Source: Rhodothermales bacterium (GTDB lineage: Bacteria > Bacteroidota > Rhodothermia > Rhodothermales > VXPQ01). From it: DNA of 33,164 nt. The stretch lies in NCBI GenBank assembly GCA_040904565.1, contig JBBDTI010000079.1:16998-50161 (forward strand), read 5' to 3'. Below are positions 1,977 through 32,963 of the stretch, piece by piece. The notes under the pieces are model-generated. The model had not been told where the DNA came from. It made no database searches and saw nothing but the letters and a program-made list of their open reading frames with translations. The translations under genes were made by a program, and so were the position numbers. Positions within the stretch are counted from its first letter, which is position 1. Each line of letters opens with the position of its first letter.

Positions 1977-1977
1977 C

Positions 1978-12769: not shown

Positions 12770-14392
12770 GTGGTCGATCAGATAGACGGTAATCGCGGGG
12801 CCATCAATCGCGGGCCCACAGCGCTGAAGCAGCAGTCGGCGGTCGCTCGCTTGGGCCTCTTCGCTCTGGAAAGCCATTCGCTGTCGGAGGTCATGCGGGA
12901 GACCGTTCGCGTCGTCGTCGATGCGCTCGGCGCAGACTTATGCTCCGTCCTTACCTTGCGAAAGGTCGACGGTTCGTTTCTCGTGCGCGCGGGTCACGGT
13001 TGGAAGGAGGGGCTCGTCGGAAGCGCCCGCGTCGGCTCCGACGAGGACGAATCGCTGGCGGGATACACCCTGGCGACGGGTAAGCCCGTGATGGTCGACG
13101 TCCTTGACGAGGAAACGCGGTTCTTCGTGGCACCGCGATTGGTCGACCACGACATCGTGAGTAGTCTCTCCGTGCTGATCGAAGGCGAGGAAGAGCCGTA
13201 TGGTGTCCTCACCACACACACGAAGCACCGGCGCGAGTTCTCTGAGATGGACGTGAACTTCCTCCAGACGGCAGCGAACGTACTGGCGGGAGCGATCGAG
13301 CGGAAGCGCGTAGAGGACGCCCTTCGCGAGAGCGAGGCACGGGCTCGCGCCGTTCTTAATACGACCGTCGACGGGATCATCACAATCGATGTGAACGGTA
13401 CGATTGAATCGTTTAACGCCGCGGCGGAGCGAATCTTCGGTTACGAAGCCGATGAGGTTGTCGGGAAAAACGTGCACATCCTCATGCCGCCCCCGTACAA
13501 GGAGGAGCACGACGAGTATATCCGCAGCTATCTGGACACGGGGCGACGCAAGATTATTGGGATCGGACGAGAAGTCGTTGGCCTTCGAAAGGACGGCTCG
13601 ACGTTTCCGCTCGATCTGGCTGTCAGCGAGGTGTATCTGAACGAACGCCGCATCTTTACCGGCGTAGTGCGCGACATCACGGACAGGCGGCACCTCGAAC
13701 ACGAGATCCTCCGCATCAGCGAGCAAGAACGTCGACGGATCGGGCAGGACCTTCACGATGGACTGGGTCAGATGTTGACCGGTATCGGTCTCATCACACG
13801 CAACCTTGCCAGACGGCTTGACGCCGAGAACGAGAAACACGCGGCCGACGTCGCCGAGATCGCCGAACTGCTCAAGGAAGCCGACGAGTTTGCCCGGGCG
13901 CTGGCTCGCGGACTCGTGCCCGTGGATCTCGAAAAGAATGGCCTCCAATACGCTCTGCAGCGCCTGGCGTCCGGGGCCGAGAAGCTTTTCGGCGTTCGCT
14001 GTACGTTCGAAGAGACCGGCAGTGTGGCGATAGAGGATAATTCCGTCGCCACGCACCTGTACCGCATCGCCCAGGAAGCCGTGAGCAATGCCGTAAAGCA
14101 CGGCAGGGCCGAGCACGTACGGGTCTATATCGCCGGCGGGGATCGGCTCATTCGCCTGCGCATTCACGACGACGGCGTGGGATTCCCAGACGATTTCGAT
14201 GCGGTTTCGGGCGATTCCGGCATGGGCGTGCGTATCATGCGGCACCGCGCACGCATCATCGGAGCGAACCTGGAAATTACGGGCGGGCTTGACGAAGGCA
14301 CGACGATCACGTGCACCCTGCGGAATCACGGATCCTCGTTACCGGCCGGCGGTGAAGAGTATATTCGTAATCGAGAATTACACACTCCATGA
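12770..14392 (+). CDS. Cytoplasmic sensor histidine kinase: GAF + FixL-type heme PAS + HisKA_3 + HATPase
   Basis: PAS segment LMPPPYKEEHDEYI...IIGIGREVVGLRKDGSTFP matches FixL; H-box RIGQDLHDGLGQ is NarX/UhpB type; N-box RIAQEAVSNAVKH; DDGVG; no TM helix. Confidence 0.9.
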   Translation: MVDQIDGNRGAINRGPTALKQQSAVARLGLFALESHSLSEVMRETVRVVVDALGADLCSVLTLRKVDGSFLVRAGHGWKEGLVGSARVGSDEDESLAGYTLATGKPVMVDVLDEETRFFVAPRLVDHDIVSSLSVLIEGEEEPYGVLTTHTKHRREFSEMDVNFLQTAANVLAGAIERKRVEDALRESEARARAVLNTTVDGIITIDVNGTIESFNAAAERIFGYEADEVVGKNVHILMPPPYKEEHDEYIRSYLDTGRRKIIGIGREVVGLRKDGSTFPLDLAVSEVYLNERRIFTGVVRDITDRRHLEHEILRISEQERRRIGQDLHDGLGQMLTGIGLITRNLARRLDAENEKHAADVAEIAELLKEADEFARALARGLVPVDLEKNGLQYALQRLASGAEKLFGVRCTFEETGSVAIEDNSVATHLYRIAQEAVSNAVKHGRAEHVRVYIAGGDRLIRLRIHDDGVGFPDDFDAVSGDSGMGVRIMRHRARIIGANLEITGGLDEGTTITCTLRNHGSSLPAGGEEYIRNRELHTP

Positions 14393-15039
14393 AGAAGATT
14401 ATCATTGTTGACGACCACCCTCTGATGCGGAAGGGGCTCGCCCTGTCGCTGAACGGCGAAACGGATCTAAAGGTCGTCGCGCAGGCAGCTGATGCCGAGG
14501 AGGCGCTGGACATGCTCGAAGACCAGGAGTTCGATGTGGCCATCGTAGACATCTCGCTGCCCGGTATGAGCGGTCTCGAGCTGATCAAGCACATGCAGGC
14601 CGTCTATCCGGAAATCCGGTCGCTCGTCGTTTCCCGGCACGACGAGGCACTCTACGCGGAGCGCGCCATCCGCGCAGGTGCACGGGGGTACGTGATGAAG
14701 CTGGAAGCGGCGGACGAGATCGTCAAGGCCGTACGACGCGTGTTGGCCGGGGGGATCTACGTCAGTGACGAGATCAACGAGCGATTGTTGATGGGGCTCG
14801 CGGCGGGACGTGACGAGCTGGCCCAGTCGCCGCTGGAAATCTTAAGCGACCGGGAGCTCGAGGTCTTCGAGCTCTCCGGGCGCGGACTCGTCACGCGCGA
14901 GATTGCCGAACGGCTTCATCTCTCTCCCAAGACCATCGAGTCCTATCGCGCACGAATCAAGGAGAAGTTGAATCTAAAGACGGCCGCCGAGCTCATGCAG
15001 CACGCGGTGCAATGGGTCGAGGGCGAAGGGAAGGGGTAG
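14389..15039 (+). CDS. NarL/LuxR-family response regulator
   Basis: IVDDHPL, phospho-acceptor VDISLP, HTH LSDRELEV...LSPKTIESYRARIKEKL; ATGA overlap with the kinase. Confidence 0.94.
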   Translation: MKKIIIVDDHPLMRKGLALSLNGETDLKVVAQAADAEEALDMLEDQEFDVAIVDISLPGMSGLELIKHMQAVYPEIRSLVVSRHDEALYAERAIRAGARGYVMKLEAADEIVKAVRRVLAGGIYVSDEINERLLMGLAAGRDELAQSPLEILSDRELEVFELSGRGLVTREIAERLHLSPKTIESYRARIKEKLNLKTAAELMQHAVQWVEGEGKG

Positions 15040-15070
15040 TGAAGCCCATCGTTGCCGCTCCCTTTACCGC

Positions 15071-16753
15071 CTAGAAGAATCGGAAGCCCGGCGAGACGAA
15101 GTTCGGCGGCAGATACGTGGCGAAAAACGGGCCGTACGCGATCAGAATCAGCACGATCGCGACGATCACCCAGAAACCGATGCGATCGAACGACTTCGAC
15201 CAGCGGGACTCATGCGGGGTCAGGAGCGTTTCCGACCAGGGTATGTCTTTCGGCCCATATCCCTTCTTCCCGAAGAAGACGGTCATTAATACGACGATGA
15301 AAAACATCAGGATGCCGACGAACATCATCGTGCCGCCGATTCCCGTCAGCGCACCGCCGAGGTCCCAGGCTTCCTGATCGTAGGCCGCCTGCACGCGGTA
15401 AATGCGCCGCGGCATGCCTTCGAGTCCGGCCGAGATCATTCCACGCGCGAAGACGAACACGCCGATGGAGTAGATCCACGACGACCATAGGGCCATCTTC
15501 CGCCCTCTGAGCTCGCGGTCGGTCAGGTACGGCACCATCCAGTAGGCCACGCCCATCAGCGTGAGCGCGACGGCACTGCCCACGGTCATGTGGAAGTGGC
15601 CCGGCACCCAGGTCGTGTTATGGATGATCTGATTCATCGTGAAGCTGGCGTTGATCAAACCGGTAATGCCACCGAACACGAACGTGATCATGGCCAGGAG
15701 CTGGGCCGTGAGCGACGGGTTACCCCATGGAAGCTTCGGGATCCATCCAAGCAGGCCCTTGCCGCCCGCAGCTCGCCCGCCCATTTCCAGCGAGGCCATC
15801 ACCGAGAAGGCCGTGGCCAGGCTGGGGAAGAACACGCCGAAGGTCAGGACGGCGTGGATGGCCTTCATCGTCGTCGAGATGCCCGGATCGGTGTATTGAT
15901 GATGGAATCCGGTCGGGATGGAGAGCAATAAAAAGAGAATGAAGACGAATTTCGTCAACGTGTTGCTGACGATCTTGCCGCCCGCCTGTCGCGGGACAAG
16001 GGCATACCAGGCGACGTAGGCTGGAAGGAGCCACGCGTATACAATGGCGTGGCCCGTGAACCAGAAGAGCGTCCGAGTCAGAAGGGGATCGGTCTTTTCA
16101 ACGAGTCCCGTCGTCCACGGCAGCAGGAACACGAGAAATTCGACCGCGATCGGCAGCGAGGCGATGAACCACATCACGTAGCTTACGACCGAGATGTGCG
16201 CGAGCAGCGGCATATCCGCGTCCGGGTGCTCCTTCTTGAACCCGCGCCACGCAAGGAGCATGGCTGCCAGCGCCAGCCACGTGCTGACGACTACCAATAC
16301 GAGGCCGAAGTAATACGTCCAGTGTGCCTGGAGAGGGGCGTAGGACGTGTAGAGGACCGTGGCCCGATTCGTCGCGATGGCGAAAACGACGAGCACATTG
16401 CCGGCGACGAGCGATCCCAGAGACGCCCAGAGCAGCGACGTATTCAGCTTGCGCGACAACGCCCGTGCCGTCATCAGCGGCAGGAACGCATTGCTGAACG
16501 AGAAGGTGAAGATCAGCGCGTTTGCTACGCCGTGGGCCGTCAGCCCCTGATAGTAGCTGCGCAGCGCCGGGAAGTACTGGAGGATGTCGATGTTGGCATA
16601 GGACAGTGCCTGGGCCAGACCGTGAAAAATGCCGGCTGTCAACGCGGCGTAGCCGATGTAGAGGCTCCATCGCAGCGGACGTTGCTGCACCTCCGGAAGG
16701 CGGAACGGCGTGCGGTCGAAGACGGATGCGGCGAGGGACGTTTGCGTGCTCAT
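15071..16753 (-). CDS. cbaA: ba3-type (B-family) heme-copper oxygen reductase subunit I
   Basis: YYQGLTAHG, TLFWFTGHAIVY (CuB His plus cross-linked Tyr), GFHHQYTDPGI, WVPGHFH, K-channel PAYVAWY and PSLAT; start at ATG 16753 overlapping the cbaB stop. Confidence 0.93.
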   Translation of the reverse strand: MSTQTSLAASVFDRTPFRLPEVQQRPLRWSLYIGYAALTAGIFHGLAQALSYANIDILQYFPALRSYYQGLTAHGVANALIFTFSFSNAFLPLMTARALSRKLNTSLLWASLGSLVAGNVLVVFAIATNRATVLYTSYAPLQAHWTYYFGLVLVVVSTWLALAAMLLAWRGFKKEHPDADMPLLAHISVVSYVMWFIASLPIAVEFLVFLLPWTTGLVEKTDPLLTRTLFWFTGHAIVYAWLLPAYVAWYALVPRQAGGKIVSNTLTKFVFILFLLLSIPTGFHHQYTDPGISTTMKAIHAVLTFGVFFPSLATAFSVMASLEMGGRAAGGKGLLGWIPKLPWGNPSLTAQLLAMITFVFGGITGLINASFTMNQIIHNTTWVPGHFHMTVGSAVALTLMGVAYWMVPYLTDRELRGRKMALWSSWIYSIGVFVFARGMISAGLEGMPRRIYRVQAAYDQEAWDLGGALTGIGGTMMFVGILMFFIVVLMTVFFGKKGYGPKDIPWSETLLTPHESRWSKSFDRIGFWVIVAIVLILIAYGPFFATYLPPNFVSPGFRFF

Positions 16754-17217
16754 TCGACGATGACGGTTCCGTACATGAGATGGTGACCTGGGCCGCAGTA
16801 CTCGTGGCAGATAATGAGATACTCGCCCGGCTCGGTGAAGCGGTACGAATTGCGTGACACCTGACCGGGTATCAGCATCATATTCAGGCGCGTCCCTTCC
16901 ACGTTTAATCCGTGCAGCACGTCGGGCGTCGTGGCGACGAACGTCACGTTGGCTCCGGCCGGCACCCGTATCTCGGCGGGCTCGAAGGACCACATCCGGC
17001 CGATCATTACCGCTTCGTACTCGTCGCCGCCGAGGTGTCGAACGCCGGGATTATCGAACGGAGGCGTCGTCGTGATCGCCGCAGGATCCACCTCCACGTC
17101 CTTGCCCGGTAAATGAATGCCGTGGGCCAGGCTCGCATACAGCAGGGCCCCGAGGCAGCAGACGAGCAGTACGGCTCCCAGCCAGAGGAAAGCCTTTTCG
17201 TACAGGTGAACTTTCAT
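16750..17217 (-). CDS. cbaB: ba3-type oxidase subunit II (CuA)
   Basis: Single N-terminal TM helix after YEKAFL, DVLHG, CuA motif CHEYCGPGHHLM. Confidence 0.93.
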   Translation of the reverse strand: MKVHLYEKAFLWLGAVLLVCCLGALLYASLAHGIHLPGKDVEVDPAAITTTPPFDNPGVRHLGGDEYEAVMIGRMWSFEPAEIRVPAGANVTFVATTPDVLHGLNVEGTRLNMMLIPGQVSRNSYRFTEPGEYLIICHEYCGPGHHLMYGTVIVE

Positions 17218-17311: not shown

Positions 17312-17461
17312 TCATCGGCCCAGCAGCATGAGATACATCATGATCCAGAAACCGAATATCAACATCAGCAGAATGAGCGTCAGGAAGACCGTCCCGGTCG
17401 TGCGGGGCTCTTCCTCGTCAGGAAGAGCCCGATCGTCGGAAGGAGGGGGCGATTCAGGCAT
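17312..17461 (-). CDS. cbaD: ba3-type oxidase subunit IIa, 49 aa (not in the ORF track)
   Basis: Hand translation MPESPPPSDDRALPDEEEPRTTGTVFLTLILLMLIFGFWIMMYLMLLGR*; single TM helix ending FW-x3-Y-x5-R like Thermus subunit IIa; directly upstream of cbaB. Confidence 0.82.
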   Translation of the reverse strand: MPESPPPSDDRALPDEEEPRTTGTVFLTLILLMLIFGFWIMMYLMLLGR

Positions 17462-17478: not shown

Positions 17479-17694
17479 TTAAGAGTTATCTCGGTCGAGC
17501 GTGCGGCTGAGGGCAAACAGGATCCCACCGAGCACCGCCGCTGCAGGCAGGGCGATCCACAGCCGGGCGCTAAAGTCGAGCGCGAGAATATGATTCAGCG
17601 ATTCCCATAGGACCGCGACAAACGGAATGCCCAGAACGACGAACATCGCCATGATCCAGAAAATCCGCCGGCCGTTTTCTTCGGACGTGGTCAT
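17479..17694 (-). CDS. Small hypothetical membrane protein (71 aa, two TM helices), first gene of the cba operon
   Basis: Two hydrophobic stretches; stop lies 17 bp before the cbaD start on the same strand. Confidence 0.65.
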   Translation of the reverse strand: MTTSEENGRRIFWIMAMFVVLGIPFVAVLWESLNHILALDFSARLWIALPAAAVLGGILFALSRTLDRDNS

Positions 17695-18099
17695 CTCGGT
17701 GATGATCTGTTGATGGAAGGCTCGGCGGGACCGTGAGGGACGGCCCGCGGCCCTCGCTGCAACGGATTCGTCATCTACGGGACCTTTCTAATTCGGTTCG
17801 ACGCGTTTGGAGAAGTGAGCGATCCCCCAGCTGCGTCGTAGGTGAATTCCTTACAAGCTGTCGCCCGAGTCAGGGCGGTAAACGAGTAAGACTTTCGGGT
17901 TGGGGGAGGTACACGCCGCGTGGACGGCGAGGTTGTGCGCATCTCACCTGCATCAAAATGAAGGCTTGCCCTACAAGCAGATGCCGTAAGGCCCTGCAAC
18001 CGTATTGATGCCGCTATCCGATTATAACAGCGACCTGAGACATGGTCAAGTCTCAGCTACCAACATATATCTATTACATTCGCGATGGGAGGTATGGTT

Positions 18100-18291
18100 A
18101 TGATCAGGAACGTAGGACTCGCAGATCGTCGCATTCGCATCGTACTGGGGGTGATTATCCTGGCGCTCGGCGTGTTCATGGAAAGCTGGTGGGGTCTGAT
18201 CGGGTTGATTCCGCTCGCGACGGGTTTCGTGAGATGGTGTCCGCTCTATGCGCCGTTCAAGTTCTCTACCACGAAACGCGAGACCGCATAA
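18100..18291 (+). CDS. DUF2892 (YgaP-like) small membrane protein
   Basis: MIRNVGLADRRIRIVLG...GLIPLATGFVRWCPLY pattern; GGAGGT at 18088-18093 favours ATG 18100. Confidence 0.85.
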   Translation: MIRNVGLADRRIRIVLGVIILALGVFMESWWGLIGLIPLATGFVRWCPLYAPFKFSTTKRETA

Positions 18292-18345: not shown

Positions 18346-19290
18346 ATGCTGAACGTCAGAAACATACTCGTCACGACCGATCTGGCAGAGGACAGCCTGT
18401 GGTCGATTCGCTATGGATGGACGCTGGCCGCGCGCTTCGGAGCTGAACTCCACGTGTTCTATGCGGACGTGCTGCACGGTCCGTTGCACGGTGCGAGTGA
18501 TACGGTTCGAGCCGATACCGAGGTGGCTTCGCGTCTCGACGAGTTGACGACGCGGATCGCCGATGAGGATCGAGATGGAAGCCGCGTGAAGGTCCGCTAT
18601 GCCATCGAGCGAGACGTCTATCCCGCGCCTGCTATCCTCGACTACGCCGACAATCAAGACGTGGATCTGATCGTCATGGGCACGCATGGTCGGCGCGGCG
18701 TAAGCCGGCTCGTGCTGGGTAGCGTGGCGGAGGAAGTCGTCCGGGAGGCGAAGTGTGCCGTGATGACGATCCGGAAGCCGGAGGGCGAGGTGCCCGACCA
18801 CGTCGACATGACTTCGGTGCTCGTTCCGTTCGACTTCTCGGAGCACGCCGAACAGGCGCTCGCGCATGCCAAAGAGCTGGCAGCGGCATTCGGTGCGCGC
18901 ATCGAGCTGTTGCACGTGATCGAGGAGCAGCTCCATCCGGCTTTCTACGGGATTACGGTGCAATCGATATATGATCTGGATCCGGACATCGAGCAGAAAT
19001 CGGTCGACCATATGAAGGAAGCCTTCGAGTCGATCGCCGGACCTGACGTACGCGTTGCATATGAGGCGCGAGGCGGCTCACCGGCACGTGAGATTGCCGA
19101 CTATGCCGACGAGATAGGTGCAAGTCTGATCGTCATGGGAACGCACGGCCTGACGGGGCTCGAACACTTCTTGCTCGGAAGTACGACTGAACGCGTACTC
19201 AGGCGAGCGAAAGTACCCGTTCTCGCGCTGAAGAGTCTGGAAAAGTCGCTACTCGACACACCCGCTGGAACTCAGGCTTCAACCGCCTGA
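18346..19290 (+). CDS. Tandem-domain universal stress protein
   Basis: Two USP domains: DLIVMGTHGRRGVSRLVLGSVAE and LIVMGTHGLTGLEHFLLGSTTE. Confidence 0.93.
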   Translation: MLNVRNILVTTDLAEDSLWSIRYGWTLAARFGAELHVFYADVLHGPLHGASDTVRADTEVASRLDELTTRIADEDRDGSRVKVRYAIERDVYPAPAILDYADNQDVDLIVMGTHGRRGVSRLVLGSVAEEVVREAKCAVMTIRKPEGEVPDHVDMTSVLVPFDFSEHAEQALAHAKELAAAFGARIELLHVIEEQLHPAFYGITVQSIYDLDPDIEQKSVDHMKEAFESIAGPDVRVAYEARGGSPAREIADYADEIGASLIVMGTHGLTGLEHFLLGSTTERVLRRAKVPVLALKSLEKSLLDTPAGTQASTA

Positions 19291-19353
19291 CGGCGGCGCG
19301 AACCGGTGAATCCCCAAAAAAGACGAGCATCACCCCCAAAAGCATTGAATACC

Positions 19354-20619
19354 ATGGAGACGACTCGCACGGAAATAACGGGAGAAAGCCACGTAGGGAT
19401 CGGTGTGGGACGAACTCATCACGAGGTGGTGATCATTGGAGGAGGTACCGGCGGCATCACCGTCGCCTCGCAGCTGCTTCGCGCCCGCGAAGGGATGGAC
19501 ATCGCCGTCATCGAGCCCTCCACGGAGCATTACTACCAGCCGCTGTGGACGCTCGTGGGCGGGGGTATCTATCCAAAAGAACGGTCCAGGCGCAGTGAAA
19601 TCTCCGTCATGCCGGACGGCGTAGAGTGGATTCGGGAGCGGGCCACCCACGTGGATCCGGATCGTCAGATCGTCGAGACCGGATCCGGACGAAAGGTCGG
19701 CTATGACTTCCTGGTCGTAGCACCGGGCTTGACGATCGATTGGGGCGGTGTCAAGGGTCTGAAGGAAACGGTGGGCAGGAACGGCGTGTGCAGTATATAC
19801 GATTACGAACAGGCCGAGGTGGTCTCGCAGATGCTGCACGAATTCGAAGGCGGCGAGGCTTATTTCACCTCACCGGCCACGCCGATCAAATGCGGGGGCG
19901 CTCCCCAGAAGATTATGTGGCTGGCGGACGATCTGTGGCGGCGGCGGAAGGTCCGGGACCGCACCGAGATCACGTTTGCAACGGCGGGGACGGTCATTTT
20001 CGGCGTGCCGGGCTTCAAGGAGGCCCTCGAAGAACTCGTCGAGGAGCGGGAGATACATACGCTTTTCGAACACCACCTCGTGGAGATTCGTCCCGAGCAG
20101 CGGGAGGCCGTATTCGCTCCACTGGCGCCGGACGGTGAGACGGAGGTACGGTCCTACGACCTCCTTCACGTGACTCCACCCATGAAGGCCCCCGACTTCG
20201 TGTCCGGCAGTACGCTTGCGCATGCGGAGGGTGAATCAAAGGGATGGATGAACGTCGATATTCACACGCTGCAGCACCCCGACTATCCGAACGTGTTTGG
20301 CGTGGGTGACGTAGCGGCCCTGCCGACGGCCAAGACGGGAGCGGCCGTTCGGAAGCAGGCTCCCGTCGTCGCAGGTAATCTGCTGCGGGTCGCCGACGGG
20401 GGCACGCTCGGCGACGATGCGTCGCGCTACGACGGGTATTCCTCGTGTCCCATCGTCACCGGGTACGGCCGCCTCATCCTGGCCGAATTCGGTTATGACA
20501 ACGAGCCCATGCCGACCTTCCCGTTCGATCAGACTAAAGAACGACGAAGCATGTACATCCTGAAAAAATACGGCCTGCCGCCCCTCTACTGGAATCTGAT
20601 GCTGAAGGGGCGGGCGTGA
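19354..20619 (+). CDS. sqr: Sulfide:quinone oxidoreductase, type II-like
   Basis: GGGTGG FAD motif, HYYQPLWTLVGGG, catalytic Cys pair IKCGGAPQK and YDGYSSCPIVTG, LAEFGY, YWNLMLKG; start set at ATG 19354. Confidence 0.88.
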   Translation: METTRTEITGESHVGIGVGRTHHEVVIIGGGTGGITVASQLLRAREGMDIAVIEPSTEHYYQPLWTLVGGGIYPKERSRRSEISVMPDGVEWIRERATHVDPDRQIVETGSGRKVGYDFLVVAPGLTIDWGGVKGLKETVGRNGVCSIYDYEQAEVVSQMLHEFEGGEAYFTSPATPIKCGGAPQKIMWLADDLWRRRKVRDRTEITFATAGTVIFGVPGFKEALEELVEEREIHTLFEHHLVEIRPEQREAVFAPLAPDGETEVRSYDLLHVTPPMKAPDFVSGSTLAHAEGESKGWMNVDIHTLQHPDYPNVFGVGDVAALPTAKTGAAVRKQAPVVAGNLLRVADGGTLGDDASRYDGYSSCPIVTGYGRLILAEFGYDNEPMPTFPFDQTKERRSMYILKKYGLPPLYWNLMLKGRA

Positions 20620-20804
20620 CCCTCTCGATACCTCCGGGCAGCCCGCCCGCTACCCGGGTCGTCGTAGCCGGTGGTGTTCAGCAGCGTGAGCGCAGCTCGG
20701 GAGGGGGCACCGATGTAGGGGTTTCCCCCTCATGCCCGGATTGATTCCCCCGCATGGGGCCATTCGCCTTCCCCGATGCCCGCGGGAGGGTACGGGCTGT
20801 CATA

Positions 20805-20826
20805 TTAAGACTAATTGGTCTTTTAA
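20805..20826. promoter_or_regulatory. Candidate operator AAGAC-N6-GTCTT upstream of the nos operon
   Basis: AT-rich palindrome TTAAGACTAATTGGTCTTTTAA in GC-rich DNA, about 90 bp before the cyt c start. Confidence 0.5.
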
Positions 20827-24542: not shown

Positions 24543-25834
24543 CGACGTGGACGCGCATAGCAATGATCGCGGCGCTCACGCTGCTGCCTACGGGTGCGCT
24601 CAAAGGGCAAACCGTGGTTACGGTGAGTCCGGATGGCCCCATCTCGACGATCGAGGAAGCCGTTCGAACGGCGGAGGACGGTGCGCGCATCATCGTCGAA
24701 GCCGGGCGCTACCGTGTCACGACCGTCGAGATCCGGAAACCGGTCACCATTTCGGGTGAGCCCGGCGCCGTGCTCGTAGCGGTCGACGGGAATCAGATCT
24801 TTACGGTACTGGCCGATGGAGTGACCATTGAAGGCCTCACGCTGCGCGGTATTTCGACGAGCTTCATCGACGATCGAGCCGCCATACGCATCGAGCGTTC
24901 CGCCGGATGTCGGATCGCGAACAACTTCATCGACGATGCCTTCTTCGGCATTTATCTCGCTAAGGCGAACGATTGCGTCATCGCTGCGAACGTGTTTACG
25001 GCACGGAAGCCGACCCAGACGACGTCGGGGAACGGAATCCATCTCTGGTACTCCGAAGACATAGACATTCGAGACAACCGCATCCGGGGACACCGGGACG
25101 GCATCTACCTCGAATTCTCGTCCAATGTCGTGGTGACGAACAATGAAGCGCGCCGCAACCGCCGTTACGGGCTCCACTTCATGTTTTCAGACAACTGCCG
25201 GTACCTCGACAACACGTTCGCGGAGAATGATGCCGGCGTTGCCGTTATGTATTCGAGGGACGTTGAGATGATGCGAAATCGTTTCGTAGACAATTGGGGT
25301 CCCTCCGCGTTCGGACTTCTGCTGAAGGATATCACGGACAGTCGCATCGAAGGCAACGTAATCGAAGGTAACACGGTGGGAATCTACGCGGAAGGTGTCA
25401 ACCGCGTGCAGGTCATGCATAATGATTTCGTGGAGAACGGCCGGGCCGTAAAGCTCCTGGCCAACTCCATGGAAACCGAATTTAGAGCAAACAATTTCGT
25501 CGCCAACACCTTCGACGTCACGACGAACAGCCGTCAGAGCTACAGTACGTTCGAAGGGAACTACTGGGATGCGTATCGCGGATACGACCTCGATCGCGAC
25601 GGCACGGGCGACGTTCCCTTCTATCCCGTTCGCCTCTTCGCGTTGATCGTCGAGCGGAACGAACCGGCCATCATCTTGATGCGCAGTCTCTTCGTCCACC
25701 TGATGGATGCCGCGGAACGCGTACTGCCTACCTTGACGCCCAAAGCCGTCGTGGACGAGCGGCCGCTCATGAAGCGGGCACGGACGCCGGACCTCCATGC
25801 AGCACAATCCCCAATCATCCCCCAGCCGTCATGA
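24539..25834 (+). CDS. nosD: Nitrous oxide reductase maturation protein NosD
   Basis: Signal peptide, beta-helix repeats GNGIHLW, HRDGIYLEF, RYGLHFMFS, GNYWD, GYDLDRDGTGDVP. Confidence 0.94.
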   Translation: MTTWTRIAMIAALTLLPTGALKGQTVVTVSPDGPISTIEEAVRTAEDGARIIVEAGRYRVTTVEIRKPVTISGEPGAVLVAVDGNQIFTVLADGVTIEGLTLRGISTSFIDDRAAIRIERSAGCRIANNFIDDAFFGIYLAKANDCVIAANVFTARKPTQTTSGNGIHLWYSEDIDIRDNRIRGHRDGIYLEFSSNVVVTNNEARRNRRYGLHFMFSDNCRYLDNTFAENDAGVAVMYSRDVEMMRNRFVDNWGPSAFGLLLKDITDSRIEGNVIEGNTVGIYAEGVNRVQVMHNDFVENGRAVKLLANSMETEFRANNFVANTFDVTTNSRQSYSTFEGNYWDAYRGYDLDRDGTGDVPFYPVRLFALIVERNEPAIILMRSLFVHLMDAAERVLPTLTPKAVVDERPLMKRARTPDLHAAQSPIIPQPS

Positions 25835-26550
25835 ATCCCATTATCGCGCTACGCGATCTTCGAAAATCGTTCGGGCGGCTTGAGGTCCTTAAAGGCGTCG
25901 ACATGGACGTGATGCCGGGACGCGTCACGGCCGTGGTCGGACACAACGGATCGGGTAAGACCACGCTCATCAAGTCGATCCTCGGTCTCGTCAAGCCCGA
26001 CGCCGGAACGATACGTTTCGGGCAGGAAGAGCTCAACGGTGACTCGGAGTACCGCCGGCGAATCGGCTACATGGCGCAGTCCGCCCATTTCCCCGACAAC
26101 CTGACGGCGCTCGATCTGTTTGCCATGCTGGAGGATCTGCGTGGCAATGCTGGCGCGCGGAAAGAGACACTCATCAAGTCGTTCGGGCTGTTTCCGGAAC
26201 TCGAGAAACCGGTCCGCACGCTTTCCGGCGGCAATCGTCAGAAGGTGTCGGCCGTCATGGCGTTCATGTTCGAACCGGAGGTGCTCATCCTCGATGAACC
26301 CACGGCCGGACTGGACCCGGTCTCCAGCAGCGTGCTGAAGGATCTGGTCCACGCCGACAGAGCCCGGGGACGCTCCTTCATCCTTACGTCTCACATCATG
26401 AGCGAAATAGAGGAACTGGCCGATCACGTCGTCTTTCTTCAGGACGGACGCGTACGGTTCGACGGTCCGATCGACGACGTGCGGACGGGTACGGGCGAGC
26501 AGAATCTCGAGCGGGCGATTGCCCAATTGATGATGGAGGTCGAAGCATGA
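25831..26550 (+). CDS. nosF: ABC ATPase NosF
   Basis: GHNGSGKTT, LSGGNRQK, LILDEPTAGLDP; lies between nosD and nosY with ATGA overlaps. Confidence 0.9.
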   Translation: MNPIIALRDLRKSFGRLEVLKGVDMDVMPGRVTAVVGHNGSGKTTLIKSILGLVKPDAGTIRFGQEELNGDSEYRRRIGYMAQSAHFPDNLTALDLFAMLEDLRGNAGARKETLIKSFGLFPELEKPVRTLSGGNRQKVSAVMAFMFEPEVLILDEPTAGLDPVSSSVLKDLVHADRARGRSFILTSHIMSEIEELADHVVFLQDGRVRFDGPIDDVRTGTGEQNLERAIAQLMMEVEA

Positions 26551-27392
26551 GCCGTTCCATTACGCTTTCGCGAATTTTTGCCTCAACGGAGTCGACAGCG
26601 ACCTCGAACGCGACCCTCAAGCTCGCGAAATACGAGTTGCGCGACGTCATGCGCAGTCGCTGGATCCTGCTGTACGGGTTGTTTTTTCTCGGCTTAACGG
26701 AGGCCCTGCTCCGGTTCGGGGGCGGCACGACGCATGCCCTGATCAGTCTCATCAACGTGGTCCTGCTCATCGTTCCCCTCGTAGGGATCGTATTCGGAAC
26801 CATGTATCTCTACAGCGCGCGAGAATTCGTGGAGCTGCTCCTCTCTCAACCGGTCAACCGGAGGCAGCTCTACGTCGGGCTCTACGTGGGACTCGTCGGG
26901 CCGCTTACGGCGGCATTTCTGGTAGGCACGGCCGTGCCCTTTCTGGCCCGGGGATTGACGGCGGGCGACCTTTCGGCCTTTCTGTCGCTGCTCGGCGCGG
27001 GGACCTTCCTGACGCTTATTTTCGTCGGTTTTGCGTTTCCTATTTCCATCGGGAGTGACGAGCGGGTACGGGGCCTGGGCCTGGCGCTGGCCACGTGGCT
27101 CGGCCTCTCGGTCGTCTACGACGGATTCGTGCTCTTCATCCTCCAGGCGGCGGCGAATTATCCCCTCGAAGGGGCGGCGCTGGTGATGACGATGCTGAAT
27201 CCGGTGGACCTGGCGCGGTCGTTACTGCTGCTCCAGTTTGACGTCGCCGCTCTGATGGGCTACACGGGAGCCGTGTTCGAGCAGTTTTTCGGCAGCGCAT
27301 TCGGCACGGCGACGGCTCTGGCCGTGCTGGTCGTCTGGACCGCGCTTCCGTTCGGCATAGGGATGGCACGTTTTCGGAAGAAGGATTTCTAG
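26547..27392 (+). CDS. nosY: ABC permease NosY
   Basis: REFVELLLSQP, LNPVDLAR, ALMGYTGA, FRKKDF; multi-TM. Confidence 0.9.
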   Translation: MSRSITLSRIFASTESTATSNATLKLAKYELRDVMRSRWILLYGLFFLGLTEALLRFGGGTTHALISLINVVLLIVPLVGIVFGTMYLYSAREFVELLLSQPVNRRQLYVGLYVGLVGPLTAAFLVGTAVPFLARGLTAGDLSAFLSLLGAGTFLTLIFVGFAFPISIGSDERVRGLGLALATWLGLSVVYDGFVLFILQAAANYPLEGAALVMTMLNPVDLARSLLLLQFDVAALMGYTGAVFEQFFGSAFGTATALAVLVVWTALPFGIGMARFRKKDF

Positions 27393-27415: not shown

Positions 27416-28642
27416 GTGAGTGGCGGTAGTAGTGACATACGTCGAGTCGTGATTGTCGGCGGCGGCCTCGCCGGCCTCGAAGCAGCGCTGTATCTCGGAA
27501 CGGTACTCGGAGACGACGTGTCGATCACGATGATTTCGAATCGCGACAGGTTCGTTTATCGGCCGTTCCTGACCTACCTCGCATTCGGACTTTCGCCGGA
27601 TCGCATCGAGATCGACCTCGAAGAGTTTGCGACACAGCACGGGATTCGACTGCACGTCGGAACGGTCGAGTCGGTTGATCCGCAACGACGCATCGTAGAG
27701 TTCAACGGACATTCGCTCGCGTACGACGCGCTTATTCTGGCCACCGGGGCACGATCCGTGGAGGAGCCTATCCCCGGCCTGCGGGGCGGCCACACGATTT
27801 GGGACAGGGCGGACATGCTGCGGCTCCGCGAGCGGCTTACAGAGGAGGTCGAGCGGGCGTCGCCAGAGCGGCCGACCCGCGTGCTCTTTCTCGTTCCGCC
27901 AGGGAATGCCTGGTCGGGTCCGGTATACGAGCTGGCCGTCATGACCGCTTCGTGGCTGGCCGAACAGGGGGTGCGAGCCGCCTTCGATCTGCAGCTGATT
28001 ACGGCGGAGCACCGACACGTCGAAGCCATGGGCGAGAAGGTGGGCGAGCGGGTCGCAGACAGCCTGGCCTTCCACGGCATTCACGCGCAGACGGGGCGCG
28101 AGGCGATACGCGTGGAGCCAGGACACGTCGTCTTCGAGGAGGGCACCGACGCCGGCTTCGATATACTGATCAATGGCGCGGTATATGCTGGTGCCGGGCC
28201 GGTGGAGGGACTGCCCGTCGACGAGGAGGGCTTCTATCGAACGAGAATGGAGAATCGCGAACTCCAGTCGATCGATCGAATATACGCTGTGGGCGACGGC
28301 TCGGATTTTCCCGTGAAACAGGGGTTCCTCGCGCTGCTTCAAGCCGACGCGGCCGCGGAGCATATAGCGGCTCGTATATTAGGCCGGGACCCCCAATTTA
28401 CGTTCACGGCGACGCTATTCTGGTTGATGGATGAGTTCGATCAGGTGCTGTTCGCTCGCGGCGAGAGGGACATGGTCAGCGCGGACGTCGACAACTTCGC
28501 CGCCGGGAAGCTGCGCAGGCTCGAGACCATGGGCTACCTGCCGCGTCAGCAGCGACTCGGCAACCCGCTCTACTCGGGACTTCTCTGGAAAGGGACGGAC
28601 ATCGGCCTTTCGCTTATCAAGAACCTGGAGTCGGACCGGTAG
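27416..28642 (+). CDS. SQR/FCSD-like FAD-dependent oxidoreductase with no cysteines
   Basis: GGGLAG, FVYRP, YDALILATG, WSGPVYE, IYAVGD, PVKQGFLA; no Cys in 408 aa. Confidence 0.8.
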   Translation: MSGGSSDIRRVVIVGGGLAGLEAALYLGTVLGDDVSITMISNRDRFVYRPFLTYLAFGLSPDRIEIDLEEFATQHGIRLHVGTVESVDPQRRIVEFNGHSLAYDALILATGARSVEEPIPGLRGGHTIWDRADMLRLRERLTEEVERASPERPTRVLFLVPPGNAWSGPVYELAVMTASWLAEQGVRAAFDLQLITAEHRHVEAMGEKVGERVADSLAFHGIHAQTGREAIRVEPGHVVFEEGTDAGFDILINGAVYAGAGPVEGLPVDEEGFYRTRMENRELQSIDRIYAVGDGSDFPVKQGFLALLQADAAAEHIAARILGRDPQFTFTATLFWLMDEFDQVLFARGERDMVSADVDNFAAGKLRRLETMGYLPRQQRLGNPLYSGLLWKGTDIGLSLIKNLESDR

Positions 28643-28750
28643 GCGTCCCATTCATGGATTCGCCTACATGGGCAGGGTCGGTTTCCTCGCAAGGATGCGT
28701 CCGTCGAATCGGTAATCTTTATCAGTATGGTAAGTGAAGGAGAGGATGCG

Positions 28751-29365
28751 ATGAAAGAAGATGACTCGACACGCGACCGCCTGGTGTCTCTCGATGTGGC
28801 GAAAGATTTCTGGTCGCGCTTCCACGTCGTGGCGCCGTTGGTCGTGATCGGCACGATCGAAGGAGACGGATATGACCTCGCCCCGAAGCACATGGTAACG
28901 CCGCTGGGATGGGGCCCGTTTTTCGGGTTCGTCTGTACGCCGCGTCACGCCACGTATCGAAACGCGAAGGAGACGGGGTTTTTCACCGTCACGTTCCCCA
29001 ATCCGTCCCACGTCGTGCTCGCGAGCATTACGGCTCAGCCGCGATGCGGCGACGGCGGTGAGAAACCCGGGCTGGACGACGTGCCGACCTTCCGTGCGAC
29101 CGAGATCGACGGCGTGTTTCTGGAAGAAGGGTATCTGTTCCTGGAATGCAAGGTCGACCGGACGATCGACGGATTCGGCAAAAACAGTCTCGTCGTGGGC
29201 TTCATCCAGGCCGTTCACGTCGATGAAGCGCATCTTCGCGCCAGCGACGTGGAGGAGGGGAAAATGATTCACGAGGCCCCACTTCTGGCTTACATCAGTC
29301 CGGGCCGATATGCCGAAATCAAAGACACGAACGCCTTTCCGTTTCCAGCCGGTTTCGAGCGGTGA
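28751..29365 (+). CDS. Flavin reductase-like (DIM6/NTAB, split-barrel) protein
   Basis: PLVVIGT, DLAPK, HATYRNAKETGFFTV, LECKV; start at ATG 28751 (or 28727). Confidence 0.78.
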   Translation: MKEDDSTRDRLVSLDVAKDFWSRFHVVAPLVVIGTIEGDGYDLAPKHMVTPLGWGPFFGFVCTPRHATYRNAKETGFFTVTFPNPSHVVLASITAQPRCGDGGEKPGLDDVPTFRATEIDGVFLEEGYLFLECKVDRTIDGFGKNSLVVGFIQAVHVDEAHLRASDVEEGKMIHEAPLLAYISPGRYAEIKDTNAFPFPAGFER

Positions 29366-29369
29366 GAAG

Positions 29370-30578
29370 ATGTACGATGCCGAGGCACAGCACGTTTTAT
29401 CGTATCTGGAACGACGGAAGGACGAGATGGTCGACCTTCTCCGACGTTTCGTTATGTTGGAATCTCCGTCTACGGATCCGTCCGCTCAGGTCGAACTGTT
29501 GGAGGTTATCGCAGCGGAGTTCGAACGGTCGGGTTTCGAGTCTACGCGCGTACCGCGGCCCTCCTCGGGCGGATATCTCTACGCCGCACCGCTGGATCGG
29601 CGGCGAGGTCGACCGTATCAGCTCCTCCTCGGTCACTGCGATACGGTCTGGCCTGCAGGCACGATTGACCGCATGCCGTTTCGGCGTGAGGATGGCGTAG
29701 TCCGCGGTCCGGGAGCCTTCGATATGAAAGGAGGCCTCGTCCAGATGATCTTTGCACTTCGCGCAATGGCCGAGCTGGGTCTGGATCCCGACGTTACGCC
29801 GGTCGTGCTCGTTAATTCGGACGAGGAGATCGGGAGCAGGGACTCCGTGCACGCCGTTCGAAGACTGGCCCGGCACGCGGATCGAGCCTTCGTGCTCGAG
29901 CCCGCGCTCGAACCGGTGGGAAAGCTCAAGACCTCGCGTCGTGGGGCAGGCAAGTTTGTCATCGGAGTTCGCGGGAAAAGCGCGCACTCGGGCATCGAAC
30001 CCGGAGCAGGCGCGAGCGCAATTCTCGAACTGTCTCACGTCATTCAGAAACTTCACGAACTGAACGATCCGGCCGAGGGGATCAGCATCAACGTGGGGAT
30101 GATCGATGGGGGAAGCCGATCCAACGTCGTCGCGGCGGAAGCCAGTGCCATCGTCGACGTTCGTGTAGCGCGCTCGGAGGATGCCGAACGCATCGTTCGG
30201 CAGATCAGGGCCATTACTCCCGTAGTACCCGGTACCGAGATCGTCGTCGAAGGCCGCTTCGGGCGAGACCCGATGGAACCTACGCCGAGAAATCGAGCGC
30301 TCTGGAAGCGGGCCGTCCGTGCGGCGGAGGTGCTGGGGCTTCAGATCGACGAAGGTCGCTCAGGCGGCGTTTCCGACGCCAACGTTACCAGCCGGTTTAC
30401 GGCCACGCTCGACGGACTCGGATCCGTCGGAGACGGGGCGCACGCCGCGCACGAATATGTAGACGTGGGCCGGATGCCCGAGCGAGCGGCCCTGCTTGCG
30501 TTGCTTGTGTTGCAGCCGCCACTGTCGCCGGAAGAGGTGGAGGCCATCGACGAACGAGCTGCCCAGGAGGTCGAATAA
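29370..30578 (+). CDS. M20 family metallo-amidohydrolase (carboxypeptidase G2-like)
   Basis: GHCDTV, GPGAFDMKGG, SDEEIGS, VLEP, GKSAHSG, GGVSDAN, GAHAAHE. Confidence 0.88.
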   Translation: MYDAEAQHVLSYLERRKDEMVDLLRRFVMLESPSTDPSAQVELLEVIAAEFERSGFESTRVPRPSSGGYLYAAPLDRRRGRPYQLLLGHCDTVWPAGTIDRMPFRREDGVVRGPGAFDMKGGLVQMIFALRAMAELGLDPDVTPVVLVNSDEEIGSRDSVHAVRRLARHADRAFVLEPALEPVGKLKTSRRGAGKFVIGVRGKSAHSGIEPGAGASAILELSHVIQKLHELNDPAEGISINVGMIDGGSRSNVVAAEASAIVDVRVARSEDAERIVRQIRAITPVVPGTEIVVEGRFGRDPMEPTPRNRALWKRAVRAAEVLGLQIDEGRSGGVSDANVTSRFTATLDGLGSVGDGAHAAHEYVDVGRMPERAALLALLVLQPPLSPEEVEAIDERAAQEVE

Positions 30579-30580
30579 CC

Positions 30581-31606
30581 ATGCGGTACGTCCATTCGTC
30601 ACTCACCCGCATCTCCAACCTGGCCGACGAACGGTTCGACGTGCGGCGGACCGATCGGAGCGGATGGCGTACGGGAGATTACGTCGTCGGCGAAGTCTAC
30701 GGCGTGCCCAGCAGCCTCTATCGTATCGAGCTCGCGAACGGACGCCACATGCCCGTCATGGAGGGGGATTGCGTCGTCGGGGCGTTCGGTCGTCGATCGG
30801 CTACGCTGGAAGCAAATGGAGACTGGGAGCACATTGATGAGGATGGCAGGATGGATGCGCTGACCGGCGGCGGATTGTTCGGACGCTGCACGTCCCGGTC
30901 CGCCATGATGCCCTCGCTCTTGAAGATGAAATACATGGGCCACGTCTGGTTGGACGGCCGTCCCGCGCGCATGAAGGATTACGTCGAACGAGTGGATGCG
31001 ACGCCGTTCACGACGCCGTCCATTCTCCTGATCGGTTCGTCCATGTCCTCCGGAAAGACCACGGCGGCGCGCACGCTGATCCGACTCCTGAAGACGATGG
31101 GTGCTACCGTACTCGGCGCGAAACTGACGGGCGCCGGCCGATTTCGCGACGTACTCAGCATGCACGACGCGGGCGCCGATCACATCTTTGACTTTGTGGA
31201 TGTTGGGCTGCCGTCGACCATCTGCGACGAAGCATCGTACCGATCGTCGCTCCGTGGATTGTTACACCGGATGGGGGCCGTCGACGCCGACGTCGCCGTC
31301 ATCGAATCCGGCGCGTCGCCGATGGAGCCGTACAACGGGGCCGCGGCCGTCCATGAAATCAAACCGCACATTCGCCTGATGGTACTTTGTACGTCGGATC
31401 CGTATGCGGTGATCGGCGTGCGGGACGCATTCGGCCATGCGCCCGATCTGGTTACCGGGCCGGCGACCAACACGGAGGCCGGAATCTCGCTGGTCGAACA
31501 TCTATCCGGCATTCAGGCGCTCAACGTACTCGATCGCAGCTCGCATCCGGAGTTCGAGCGCATTCTGCGGACGAAGCTGGACTGGTCGAACGGGGAAGGC
31601 TCTTGA
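30581..31606 (+). CDS. DUF1611-like P-loop protein
   Basis: IGSSMSSGKTT, AKLTGAGRFRD, DAGA...DFVDVGLPST pattern. Confidence 0.72.
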   Translation: MRYVHSSLTRISNLADERFDVRRTDRSGWRTGDYVVGEVYGVPSSLYRIELANGRHMPVMEGDCVVGAFGRRSATLEANGDWEHIDEDGRMDALTGGGLFGRCTSRSAMMPSLLKMKYMGHVWLDGRPARMKDYVERVDATPFTTPSILLIGSSMSSGKTTAARTLIRLLKTMGATVLGAKLTGAGRFRDVLSMHDAGADHIFDFVDVGLPSTICDEASYRSSLRGLLHRMGAVDADVAVIESGASPMEPYNGAAAVHEIKPHIRLMVLCTSDPYAVIGVRDAFGHAPDLVTGPATNTEAGISLVEHLSGIQALNVLDRSSHPEFERILRTKLDWSNGEGS

Positions 31607-31669: not shown

Positions 31670-32272
31670 ATGGAGGTAAAGATGAACCCGCGAATACGAC
31701 ACCGCCGCACCCTGGATACGTTGAACGACGAGGATCTGATGACCGAGCTCCAGGGCGGCACCGACGAAGCACTAGACATACTTCAGCGTCGACACGGTAC
31801 GCGCATATTCCACTATCTGCTCAAATTCACGCGTAACGTCCAGACGGCAGAGGATCTCATGCAGGAGACGTTTCTGCGAGTATACCGGAGCCGTCAGACG
31901 TACCGGCGCATCGCCAGGTTTACGACGTGGCTTTTCACGATTGCCGGCAACCTGGCGCGTTCTGAATACAGGAGAAAGCAGCGGGTCACGATCTTTTCGA
32001 TGAACGCTGCTCGGAAGCCTGACGGTGCCGAATGGGAACTACCGGATGAAACAGATATCCCTGATGAACGGGTCGATCGTGCGATGGAGACGGAGCGCGT
32101 CTTTCACGCCATCGACCATCTTCCCGAACACTTTCGCGATCTCGTCATGATGCGCGGGCTTCAGGAACTCAGCTACGAGGAGATGCACCTGCTGACCGGC
32201 GTTCCGCTCGGGACGATCAAGAGTCGGATCCACCGCGGGCGTACGCTTCTTACGAAGATGCTGGCCGAGTGA
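31670..32272 (+). CDS. ECF (RpoE-like) sigma factor
   Basis: Region 2 AEDLMQETFLRVY...FTTWLFTIAGN; region 4 LSYEEM...VPLGTIKSRIHRGR; start may be ATG 31682. Confidence 0.9.
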   Translation: MEVKMNPRIRHRRTLDTLNDEDLMTELQGGTDEALDILQRRHGTRIFHYLLKFTRNVQTAEDLMQETFLRVYRSRQTYRRIARFTTWLFTIAGNLARSEYRRKQRVTIFSMNAARKPDGAEWELPDETDIPDERVDRAMETERVFHAIDHLPEHFRDLVMMRGLQELSYEEMHLLTGVPLGTIKSRIHRGRTLLTKMLAE

Positions 32273-32522
32273 CGAAAGGATTCTTTTGGACGCACCCAGC
32301 ATCTCGACGGTAGCCCCTGGGTATTTCTCGTACAAGGCTGGTAGCCGCCCTCCTACGACGATGTGCGTGTTTGCCTCTCAGCGTTCGTTCCGTGCGGACG
32401 GTATCCTGGTTTTAACGGTATAGCTCAATAAGGGTATCCGTCAACGGCATCACCAATGAGGGTGGCCGTGGTGACGGTCGTACCATGTAAACGTTCAGGA
32501 TTTAGACGCGCGGAGGAGTGCC

Positions 32523-32963
32523 ATGACAAACCTAACACGCTATCGTCCCTTTATGCCGATGAGGCAACTGCAGCGGGAAATCGACCGGGTGTTCGGCGAC
32601 TTCGTACCGTTCTTCGGATCGGAGGAGATGGAAAGTGCAGTGTGGGCCCCCAAGCTGGACATCACGGAGAGTGACACCGAATACGTGGTCAAAATGGAGG
32701 TCCCCGGTATTTCGAAAGATCAGATCAAGGTCGATCTGGAAGATCACCGGCTCACGGTCAGCGGCGAGCGAAACGAAGAAAAGAAAGAAGAGGCGGAGAA
32801 TCGCCTCGTTGTGGAGCGAAGCTATGGGAGCTTCTTCCGGTCGATATCGTTGCCGAAAGCCGCCGTCGAGGCGGCAGTCGACGCAAAGCTAAAAGACGGC
32901 GTTCTGGCCGTCACGGTCAAGAAAGAGGAAGTATCAAAGCCCCGCCGGATCGACATCAAGTAA
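32523..32963 (+). CDS. Hsp20/alpha-crystallin small heat-shock protein
   Basis: WAPKLDITE, EVPG, ERSYGSFFRSISLP, AKLKDGVL, C-terminal IDI; strong RBS GGAGGA. Confidence 0.95.
   Translation: MTNLTRYRPFMPMRQLQREIDRVFGDFVPFFGSEEMESAVWAPKLDITESDTEYVVKMEVPGISKDQIKVDLEDHRLTVSGERNEEKKEEAENRLVVERSYGSFFRSISLPKAAVEAAVDAKLKDGVLAVTVKKEEVSKPRRIDIK

Follow-up and report, generated by a model that had tools for sequence, protein, structure and literature searches.

The closest described relatives of the system treated here are two heme-based two-component systems, FixL-FixJ of Rhizobium and Bradyrhizobium and DosR(DevR)-DosS/DosT (hereafter DosRST) of Mycobacterium tuberculosis. In Bradyrhizobium, according to one study, the low-oxygen signal reaches the nos genes through FixK2 (PMC5582078). 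We describe here a sensor kinase and a response regulator encoded in 33 kb of DNA from an uncultured Rhodothermales bacterium (genome G000: 4.02 Mb, 95 contigs, 95% complete; contig C79, positions 16998-50161, the whole of this stretch being called "the window" below). The pair resembles both known systems and departs from the features that define them, namely phosphotransfer type, the domain with the heme signature, operator and regulator orthology. The best explanation that this entirely computational analysis offers, and one that we consider probable, is that the window belongs to a low-oxygen island, about 33 kb in size, of which it makes up the left two-thirds, and in which the heme-PAS/HisKA_3 kinase and its DevR-like regulator control a ba3-type oxidase operon, the ygaP-USP-SQR genes (USP, universal stress protein; SQR, sulfide:quinone oxidoreductase) and the cytC-nos cluster by means of a 17-bp palindrome, GTRGGGGAWTCCCCYAC, which occurs near the pair in many genomes.

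The sensor of the kinase is well supported, by its alignments, as a FixL-type heme-PAS. It aligns over the full length of the FixL heme domains (1d06, Rhizobium, E 3.7e-36; 8js5, Bradyrhizobium, E 3.3e-33; with 1dp6, E values run from 1e-30 to 1e-36), and its "EEHDEY" is placed opposite the His-bearing "HEHDGY" of 1d06 and "SRHDSY" of 8js5, so the proximal His is kept. The segment "IGIGR", with the Arg of the FixL distal pocket, is kept as well. A GAF domain is present in the kinase, but the recognisable heme signature sits in the PAS domain; the heme-PAS kinase that an earlier note on this DNA had proposed is thus borne out by the FixL alignment, in the PAS and not in the GAF. The remainder of the protein is of another type. 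The NCBIfam FixL model covers residues 176-309 only (148 bits, cut-off 850), and the phosphotransfer domain is HisKA_3 (PF07730, 48 bits, H-box "LHDGLGQ"), the Pfam scan giving no match to HisKA (PF00512) in the kinase. HisKA_3 is the phosphotransfer type of NarX, DesK and DevS, whereas FixL has HisKA. In the PDB comparison the kinase has no match to the GAF domains of DosS/DosT, the similarity to these proteins being limited to the ATPase domain.

The regulator is translationally coupled to the kinase, its start overlapping the kinase stop by 4 nt. Its closest solved structure is DevR/DosR (3c3w, 98.6 bits), with a marginal lead over NarL (91.6 bits) and with FixJ further away (57.5 bits); the NCBIfam FixJ model gives 80.9 bits against a cut-off of 255. 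Together with its REC and GerE domains, this agrees with the NarL-type regulator named in the earlier note. The recognition helix reads KTIESYRARI, against KTVKNYVSRL in DevR.

The likeness to FixL-FixJ therefore lies in a homologous heme-PAS with its aligned proximal His, in a REC + GerE partner and in a high-affinity cbb3 oxidase that adjoins the pair at 6 of 26 loci (see below). The differences are HisKA_3 instead of HisKA, an N-terminal GAF domain, a regulator nearer to DevR/NarL than to FixJ, family-model scores far under their cut-offs for both proteins, and a nos control that appears to be direct, via the palindrome, no FixK/Fnr-type relay having been detected in G000. With DosRST the locus has in common a kinase that combines HisKA_3 with a heme-based sensor, a regulator of the NarL family for which DevR is the best solved relative, and surroundings of a kind known from the Dos regulon: a USP-rich island with CBS-domain, P-type ATPase and Hsp20 neighbours, and nitroreductases in relatives. 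As in DosRST, the pair probably autoregulates in many relatives. It differs from DosRST in carrying the recognisable heme signature in PAS and not in GAF-A, in its operator and recognition helix (K-T-I-E-S-Y versus K-T-V-K-N-Y), and in targets that include respiratory enzymes (ba3/cbb3, NosZ, molybdoenzymes), Hsp20 having no site.

In the mechanism that we propose, the cytoplasmic kinase would sense O2 via its FixL-type heme-PAS and, by analogy with FixL, would be turned on by the loss of O2 from the heme. It would then phosphorylate the co-transcribed NarL/DevR-family regulator through the HisKA_3 dimerisation domain, and the regulator dimer would bind the palindrome, its predicted target. 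Three units would be controlled together in G000, the ba3 operon, ygaP-USP-SQR and cytC-nosZLDFY, because palindromes are found in the divergent region between ba3 and ygaP and 5' of cytC-nosZ. Outside the window, co-control would extend to CBS-USP, YceI-USP, an Arr/Psr-like molybdoenzyme operon, SulP-thioredoxin, a PLD-like gene and P-type ATPases. We infer the binding of the palindrome by the regulator, the sign of the regulation and O2 as the signal, and a switching of electron flow between O2 and N2O would be a further step of the same kind.

The palindrome was obtained by dyad enumeration on the intergenic DNA around the pair, then by allowing mismatches, and finally by building a symmetric matrix ("intergenic" here rests on an open reading frame (ORF) picker based on GC content at third codon positions, GC3). 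The mismatch-tolerant search gave a GTARGG-N5-CCYTAC inverted repeat with 12 intergenic matches and 5 in coding sequence, and the consensus of the symmetric matrix is GTAGGGGAATCCCCTAC. The matrix was trained on the kinase-regulator loci of relatives, the window being left out. These relatives are uncultured Rhodothermales for the close ones and Balneolaceae for the more distant ones; they are kin and not independent samples, which bears on all counts across genomes given here. Among the 26 primary kinase-regulator loci examined for neighbours (many on short contigs), 13 have a site of at least 15 bits within 900 nt 5' of the kinase, compared with none of 26 in a control of 900 nt of kinase coding sequence. 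The comparison, which shows palindromes placed specifically 5' of the kinase, is circular in that the matrix was trained on these same loci.

The window, absent from the training set, holds only two sites of at least 9.5 bits, at 17838 and 20715, and both are in predicted promoter regions. The first, which is the third-best match in the 4.02-Mb genome, lies 144 nt 5' of the first ORF of the ba3 operon and 262 nt 5' of ygaP-USP-SQR; the second precedes cytC. Of the three promoters suggested in the earlier note, two (17695-18099 and 20620-20910) do carry palindromes and the third, in front of hsp20 (32273-32522), does not. The position of these sites is relevant to the view that there is no common control at all: neighbours assembled by chance or horizontally, each with its own regulation (nos, for example, under an unlinked Rrf2/NsrR-type repressor), with the window sites fortuitous. 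The block has only two long promoter regions, and each of them holds one of the two sites, the rest of the 33 kb holding none; the same palindrome is found at similar distances in nos and ba3 promoters of other genomes. Sites of at least 15 bits are centred 149-226 nt 5' of cytC in G039, G023, G001 and G025, all outside the training set, and in G040 and G018, which were in it. With G000, 7 of 14 nos loci have the palindrome, as do 3 of 8 ba3 operons (G000, G023 and G028), for a chance expectation, from the genome background rate, of roughly 0.02-0.03 hits per set. The orthologous nos and ba3 operons that carry it include some that are unlinked to the pair. On the other side, the adjacency of ba3 to the kinase is unique to G000 (0 of 7 relatives), an Rrf2 gene adjoins 7 of the 14 nos loci while Rrf2 genes of the same subfamily exist elsewhere in G000, and about half of the genome-wide hits of at least 15 bits look like chance. 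On balance we regard this absence of common control as very improbable.

Control by the pair through the palindrome, the reading that we prefer, has nevertheless to be set against a number of observations that do not favour it. The exact-dyad enumeration was only borderline, its 3 loci comparing with a null maximum of 2-3. In the 4.02 Mb of G000 there are 14 hits of at least 15 bits. That a stretch of 26 kb on C79 holds four of them counts in favour of our reading, but their total is not clearly above that of palindromic column permutations (mean 7; 5 of 40 reach at least 14), and around 6 of the 14 are in coding DNA and probably due to chance; the genome-wide hit count was accordingly dropped as a test of the motif. 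Half of the nos loci (7 of 14) and 5 of the 8 ba3 operons have no nearby site. In G000 itself there is no site 5' of the kinase-regulator operon, none of at least 7 bits 5' of the ECF sigma gene, and none in the region upstream of hsp20. Hsp20 and the ECF sigma factor are neighbours whose membership in the regulon is not supported. Even with 2 mismatches allowed, the window holds no match to the DosR-box core, which we take to be GGGACT-NN-AGTCCC. The idea, put forward in the earlier note, of a DosR-like regulon governing the whole block is consequently retained in part: palindromes are present at ba3/ygaP-USP-SQR and at cytC-nosZ, and are missing at Hsp20, ECF sigma and the kinase, as is a DosR box.

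Counts across genomes add to this list. At up to 2 mismatches, there are 112 matches in the 29 pair-bearing genomes (21 for a reversed control), and the 12 genomes without a kinase match, one of which (G001) carries the regulator, still hold 16 (control 5). Within the order, the motif count differs about 2-fold per Mb with kinase presence, and in the Balneolaceae-like family 3 matches are found in 5 kinase-bearing genomes as in 5 kinase-lacking ones. Motif counts do not separate genomes cleanly and were rejected as a tracker of kinase presence. These numbers suit the hypothesis that the palindrome marks a real low-oxygen regulon bound by some other, unlinked factor, the kinase-regulator operon being only a frequent target or neighbour, as do the missing site upstream of that operon in G000 and a paralogue of the regulator (49% identity) on contig C72 of the same genome. 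We think that this hypothesis is unlikely, since sites lie close to the pair at 13 of 26 loci, since the single perfect match in G326 falls within about 200 nt of the 3' end of the regulator gene, since no other regulator gene recurs beside the sites, and since a 17-bp inverted repeat suits a GerE-type dimer (proteins of this family generally fit inverted repeats of such size).

Two other repeats were considered for the window and abandoned. AGAC-N4-10-GTCT repeats, noticed by eye in two promoters, have 4 matches for 3.4 expected. The FNR-box core, presumably TTGAT-N4-ATCAA, has one match with 1 mismatch, inside the nosZ coding sequence and at chance level, and none located in a promoter of the window. 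A scan for promoters of the sigma-70 type and for terminators gave one strong minus-strand match and a terminator-like hairpin 3' of hsp20 (32998-33024), and is not decisive on operon structure. The promoter, from 18049 to 18021 (TTGACC, 17-nt spacer, TG-TATAAT, near consensus), is directed at the ba3 operon; if it is used, the transcribed leader would include the first palindrome, and repression would then suit that promoter better than activation.

The nos cluster itself is of the clade II type: its NosZ fits the Sec-dependent model (the Tat-type model TIGR04244 gives 404 bits, below its cut-off), it is accompanied by nosL/D/F/Y and a c-type cytochrome, and no NosR-like match was found among the 40 window ORFs scanned with Pfam and NCBIfam profiles, a scan that included no specific search for nosB, nosG or nosH. 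The remark of the earlier note that the usual nos regulators are absent was correct, as these ORFs contain no NosR-like, Crp/Fnr or Rrf2 domain. The gene for the monoheme cytochrome precedes nosZ in all 14 nos loci examined with their upstream sequence, and the order nosL-D-F-Y is kept in L022, L029 and L041. A flavoprotein resembling SQR or NDH-2 is found directly 3' of nosY in three genomes (in the window, in L039 at 410-1633 and in L041 at 12132-13292), and may serve these clade II nos clusters, so far unrecognised, as an accessory component or as a point of electron input. In the NosL-domain protein of the window (23436-24542, 368 aa), the NosL domain occupies residues 240-348, and the N-terminal 230 residues or so match no family.

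These 14 loci fall into two types of equal size. In the palindrome type (G000, G001, G018, G023, G025, G039 and G040) no regulator gene is present, and in the other (G019, G020, G022, G029, G030, G031 and G034) an Rrf2 gene stands immediately 5' of cytC, with no strong palindrome in the 420 nt before cytC. Compared with the known Rrf2/NsrR-type control of nos, then, the position of the control, directly 5' of cytC-nosZ, is the same, but the gene is absent from the window and loci without it carry the palindrome instead, the two being mutually exclusive. This suggests that the palindrome system replaces the usual nos regulator in the window. A caveat is that G000 has Rrf2 paralogues on other contigs, 47-64% identical to the nos-linked Rrf2 of its relatives, which could act on nos in trans. 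Two of the Rrf2-type loci may combine both elements. In G020 there are two tandem Rrf2 genes with a 21.1-bit palindrome between them, just 5' of the second, and in G019 a 19.0-bit site is located about 0.5 kb 5' of the Rrf2 ORF; a palindrome ahead of an Rrf2 gene that is itself followed by nos, an arrangement clearer in G020 than in G019, would be analogous to the FixK2 cascade. We regard it as a serious possibility, if one somewhat less likely than not, that nos control flipped repeatedly in evolution between the direct palindrome route and an interposed Rrf2, and that in the class of Rhodothermales and Balneolaceae the pair takes the role of FNR elsewhere, directly switching on, via the palindrome, clade II nosZ, cbb3/ba3, molybdoenzymes, PFOR and the USP island.

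The distribution of regulators may be considered in this context. A profile search for HTH_Crp_2 gives no match over the cut-off in G000; among the 41 Rhodothermales genomes searched, 14 have one over the cut-off and 9 one above 50 bits (full-length Crp/Fnr type), none of the latter in G000 or its family. Orthologues of the palindrome-associated regulator (63-91% identity) are present in 30 of 41 genomes, and all 11 that lack one belong to the genus g8. When 301 genomes from across the phylum were sampled, 28 had the heme-PAS and kinase core (E at most 1e-70), 16 from the same order (including G000) and 12 from the same class; in this sample it was not found outside the class that holds Rhodothermales and Balneolaceae.

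Gene order around the pair is much less stable. The earlier note proposed linkage to cba/nos genes in other genomes as a check of its own idea, and for ba3 this fails: orthologues exist in 7 relatives, and none is near the pair (the distance is 473 kb in G039 and 761 kb in G020, both complete genomes; in the others they are on different contigs). For nos it holds in 2 of 15 NosZ-bearing relatives, G018, where nosZ and the pair are direct neighbours, and G019, where 16 kb separate them, and not in the rest. The chromosomes of G020, G031 and G039 have the pair at a long distance from nos (2.7 Mb in the complete genome G039), and in G003 and G040 the nos genes have a paralogous or distant pair in their vicinity. 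Among the 12 g8 genomes, both the pair and nosZ are confined to G018, which has kinase, regulator, cytC and nosZLDFY in this order on a single contig. The USP-rich surroundings, by contrast, do recur, as the earlier note would lead one to expect, with a tandem USP at 9 of the 26 loci; the other neighbours are cbb3 genes (ccoN/O/P/G, 6), YceI (5), nitroreductase (3), AAA_33 (3) and HemN (1). FixO of cbb3 has no match in G000, and cbb3 lies near the pair in relatives, so that ba3 takes the place of cbb3 in G000. The pair thus appears to be a general low-oxygen regulator in this class, the oxidase that it serves varying from cbb3 in six relatives to ba3 in G000.

The same theme emerges from predicted targets outside the block. 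An earlier focus on the block as the regulated unit was too narrow, the island extending about 12 kb past the window and the predicted regulon including loci on other contigs. Over about 44 kb of C79 there are 6 USP genes in the island, and USP-associated sites are at 17838 in the window and at C79:52089 and C79:60475. The sole perfect-consensus site of G000 (C60:11551, about 3052 in L042) is next to arsA, between a moeA-like fragment and an arsD/4Fe-4S/NrfD/molybdopterin-oxidoreductase operon, which may be an arsenate- or polysulfide-type (Arr/Psr-like) respiratory reductase under palindrome control. Sites are also present 5' of SulP-thioredoxin, of a PLD-like gene and of a P-type ATPase; the former two families also adjoin the pair in G006, and the third recurs in the C79 island. 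In relatives, 129 places match with up to 2 mismatches; of the first 76 we inspected 15, chosen by eye and mostly the closest. Most of them flank energy genes (PFOR, cbb3 subunit I, two molybdopterin oxidoreductases, at least two multiheme cytochromes, cytochrome b/c, PEPCK), two are inside coding sequence (an FG-GAP gene and frdB), and a few are beside genes without obvious relevance. The theme of these inspected matches is low-oxygen energy metabolism.

This composition also bears on the nature of the signal. The circuit could be as we describe it with the heme-PAS or the GAF domain reporting NO, CO or redox, the island then being a response to NO or denitrification stress. The presence of nos and SQR among the targets would fit, and the hemes of FixL-type and DosS/DosT proteins bind NO and CO besides O2. 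Moreover, the kinase has Ser at the position aligned to FixL Arg206 (in what we take to be the FixL numbering), the Arg being one position earlier, an observation that also counts against our own reading, and its GAF domain, which many orthologues lack or replace, would be an additional input for an unassigned ligand. However, the heme-PAS and kinase domains are the conserved core of all orthologues, and the predicted regulon is mostly related to O2 (cbb3, ba3, PFOR, HemN, fumarate reductase, LDH). A signal other than O2 is thus, in our opinion, the less plausible option and rather unlikely, and O2 remains the signal that we favour.

The oxidase served in G000 is of the O2-reducing type. Subunit I scores around 470 bits against the Thermus ba3 structures, including 1ehk, and its "GHaivY" aligns with "GHpivY", so that the His-Tyr cross-link is retained. 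According to a published study, this cross-link separates B-family O2 reductases from NO reductases derived from the B family (PMC11214002). With both the ba3 similarity and the His-Tyr pair in place, subunit I is assigned to the O2 reductases. The operon is oriented tail-to-tail with the regulator gene. The coordinates of these and the remaining features are collected in the table.

Table. Features of the window and of the adjoining part of contig C79 (window numbering unless C79 is given).
Feature	Position	Strand	Evidence or remark
Sigma-70-family gene	11642-12481		279 aa; regions 1.2, 2, 3, 4; immediately 5' of kinase
Sensor histidine kinase	12770-14392	+	GAF, FixL-type heme-PAS, HisKA_3, HATPase_c (Pfam)
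NarL/DevR-family response regulator	14389-15039	+	REC + GerE (Pfam)
ba3-type (B-family) heme-copper oxidase subunit I	15071-16753	-	start inferred at ATG overlapping cbaB stop
ba3 oxidase subunit II (CuA cupredoxin)	16750-17217	-	COX2 and CoxB matches
49-aa membrane ORF, possibly oxidase subunit IIa	17312-17461	-	CoxIIa 17.7 bits, below 20.7-bit cut-off
71-aa membrane ORF, first gene of putative ba3 operon	17479-17694	-	coding-type GC3; no family match
Palindrome site 1, GTAGGTGAATTCCTTAC	17838-17854		between ba3 operon and ygaP-USP-SQR; 19.8 bits
Extra half-site pair, CCCTAC-N11-GTAAGG	17969-17991		non-canonical spacing; function uncertain
YgaP-like transmembrane protein	18100-18291	+	PF11127, 78 bits
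Tandem universal stress protein	18346-19290	+	two Usp stretches, 213.8 bits
SQR, mitochondrial-like type	19306-20619	+	SQOR structures 6oi5, 6mo6, 395 bits
Palindrome site 2, GTAGGGGTTTCCCCCTC	20715-20731		15.4 bits; centre about 189 nt 5' of cytC start
Monoheme cytochrome c (cytC), first gene of nos operon	20911-21378	+	CSACH motif
Sec-dependent (clade II) NosZ	21484-23436	+	TIGR04246 942 bits, cut-off 625
NosL-domain protein, NosD, NosF, NosY	23436-27392	+	Pfam, NCBIfam
SQR/NDH-2-like flavoprotein	27416-28642	+	Pyr_redox_2; PDB matches weak
Weak palindrome-like site	28651-28667		5' of flavin reductase; 8.4 bits
Flavin reductase, M20 peptidase, 341-aa protein	28727-31606	+	Pfam for the first two
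ECF sigma	31670-32272	+	Pfam
Hsp20	32523-32963	+	Pfam
C79 island beyond the window			LDH; CBS-domain gene (site C79:52089); four tandem-USP genes; P-type ATPase; 91-aa gene (site C79:59784); YceI (site C79:60475); further USP

Every gene listed in the earlier note was found at or near the place where it had been put (ORF calls, Pfam, NCBIfam), and to these we add the ygaP-like gene, the SQR/NDH-2-like flavoprotein, the flavin reductase, the M20 peptidase, the 341-aa gene and the sigma-70-family gene. The 341-aa protein has no Pfam or NCBIfam match. The triad that it forms with the flavin reductase and the peptidase is conserved in L072 (10636-13486), beside the kinase-regulator pair, and there it carries an upstream palindrome of 19.1 bits. 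A hairpin-like repeat is present 3' of the stop of the sigma-70-family gene, and in G038 (L037) a similar sigma gene is separated from the pair by about 3 kb. The left end of the window (80-6984, minus strand) is ordinary-looking, with a cluster resembling those of myo-inositol catabolism (IolD-type TPP enzyme, IolB/KduI, Gfo/Idh/MocA dehydrogenase) and an ABC sugar transporter.

No published description of this system was found in the full-text literature, subscription-only literature being outside the scope of the search, and we know of no described regulation of clade II NosZ in Bacteroidota-related lineages. Organisms with this type of NosZ are important sinks for the greenhouse gas N2O, and our results point to a route, so far undescribed, by which this class would switch N2O consumption on. 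They provide a named sensor-regulator pair, a candidate operator with coordinates, and a set of 7 palindrome-type and 7 Rrf2-type nos loci for comparison. If the mechanism is correct, the combination of heme-PAS, HisKA_3 and a DevR-like regulator would be a third architecture beside FixL-FixJ and DosRST, through which O2, sensed by heme, would act directly on nosZ and on which high-affinity oxidase is chosen, in a lineage where the majority of the genomes searched lack a Crp/Fnr-type regulator.

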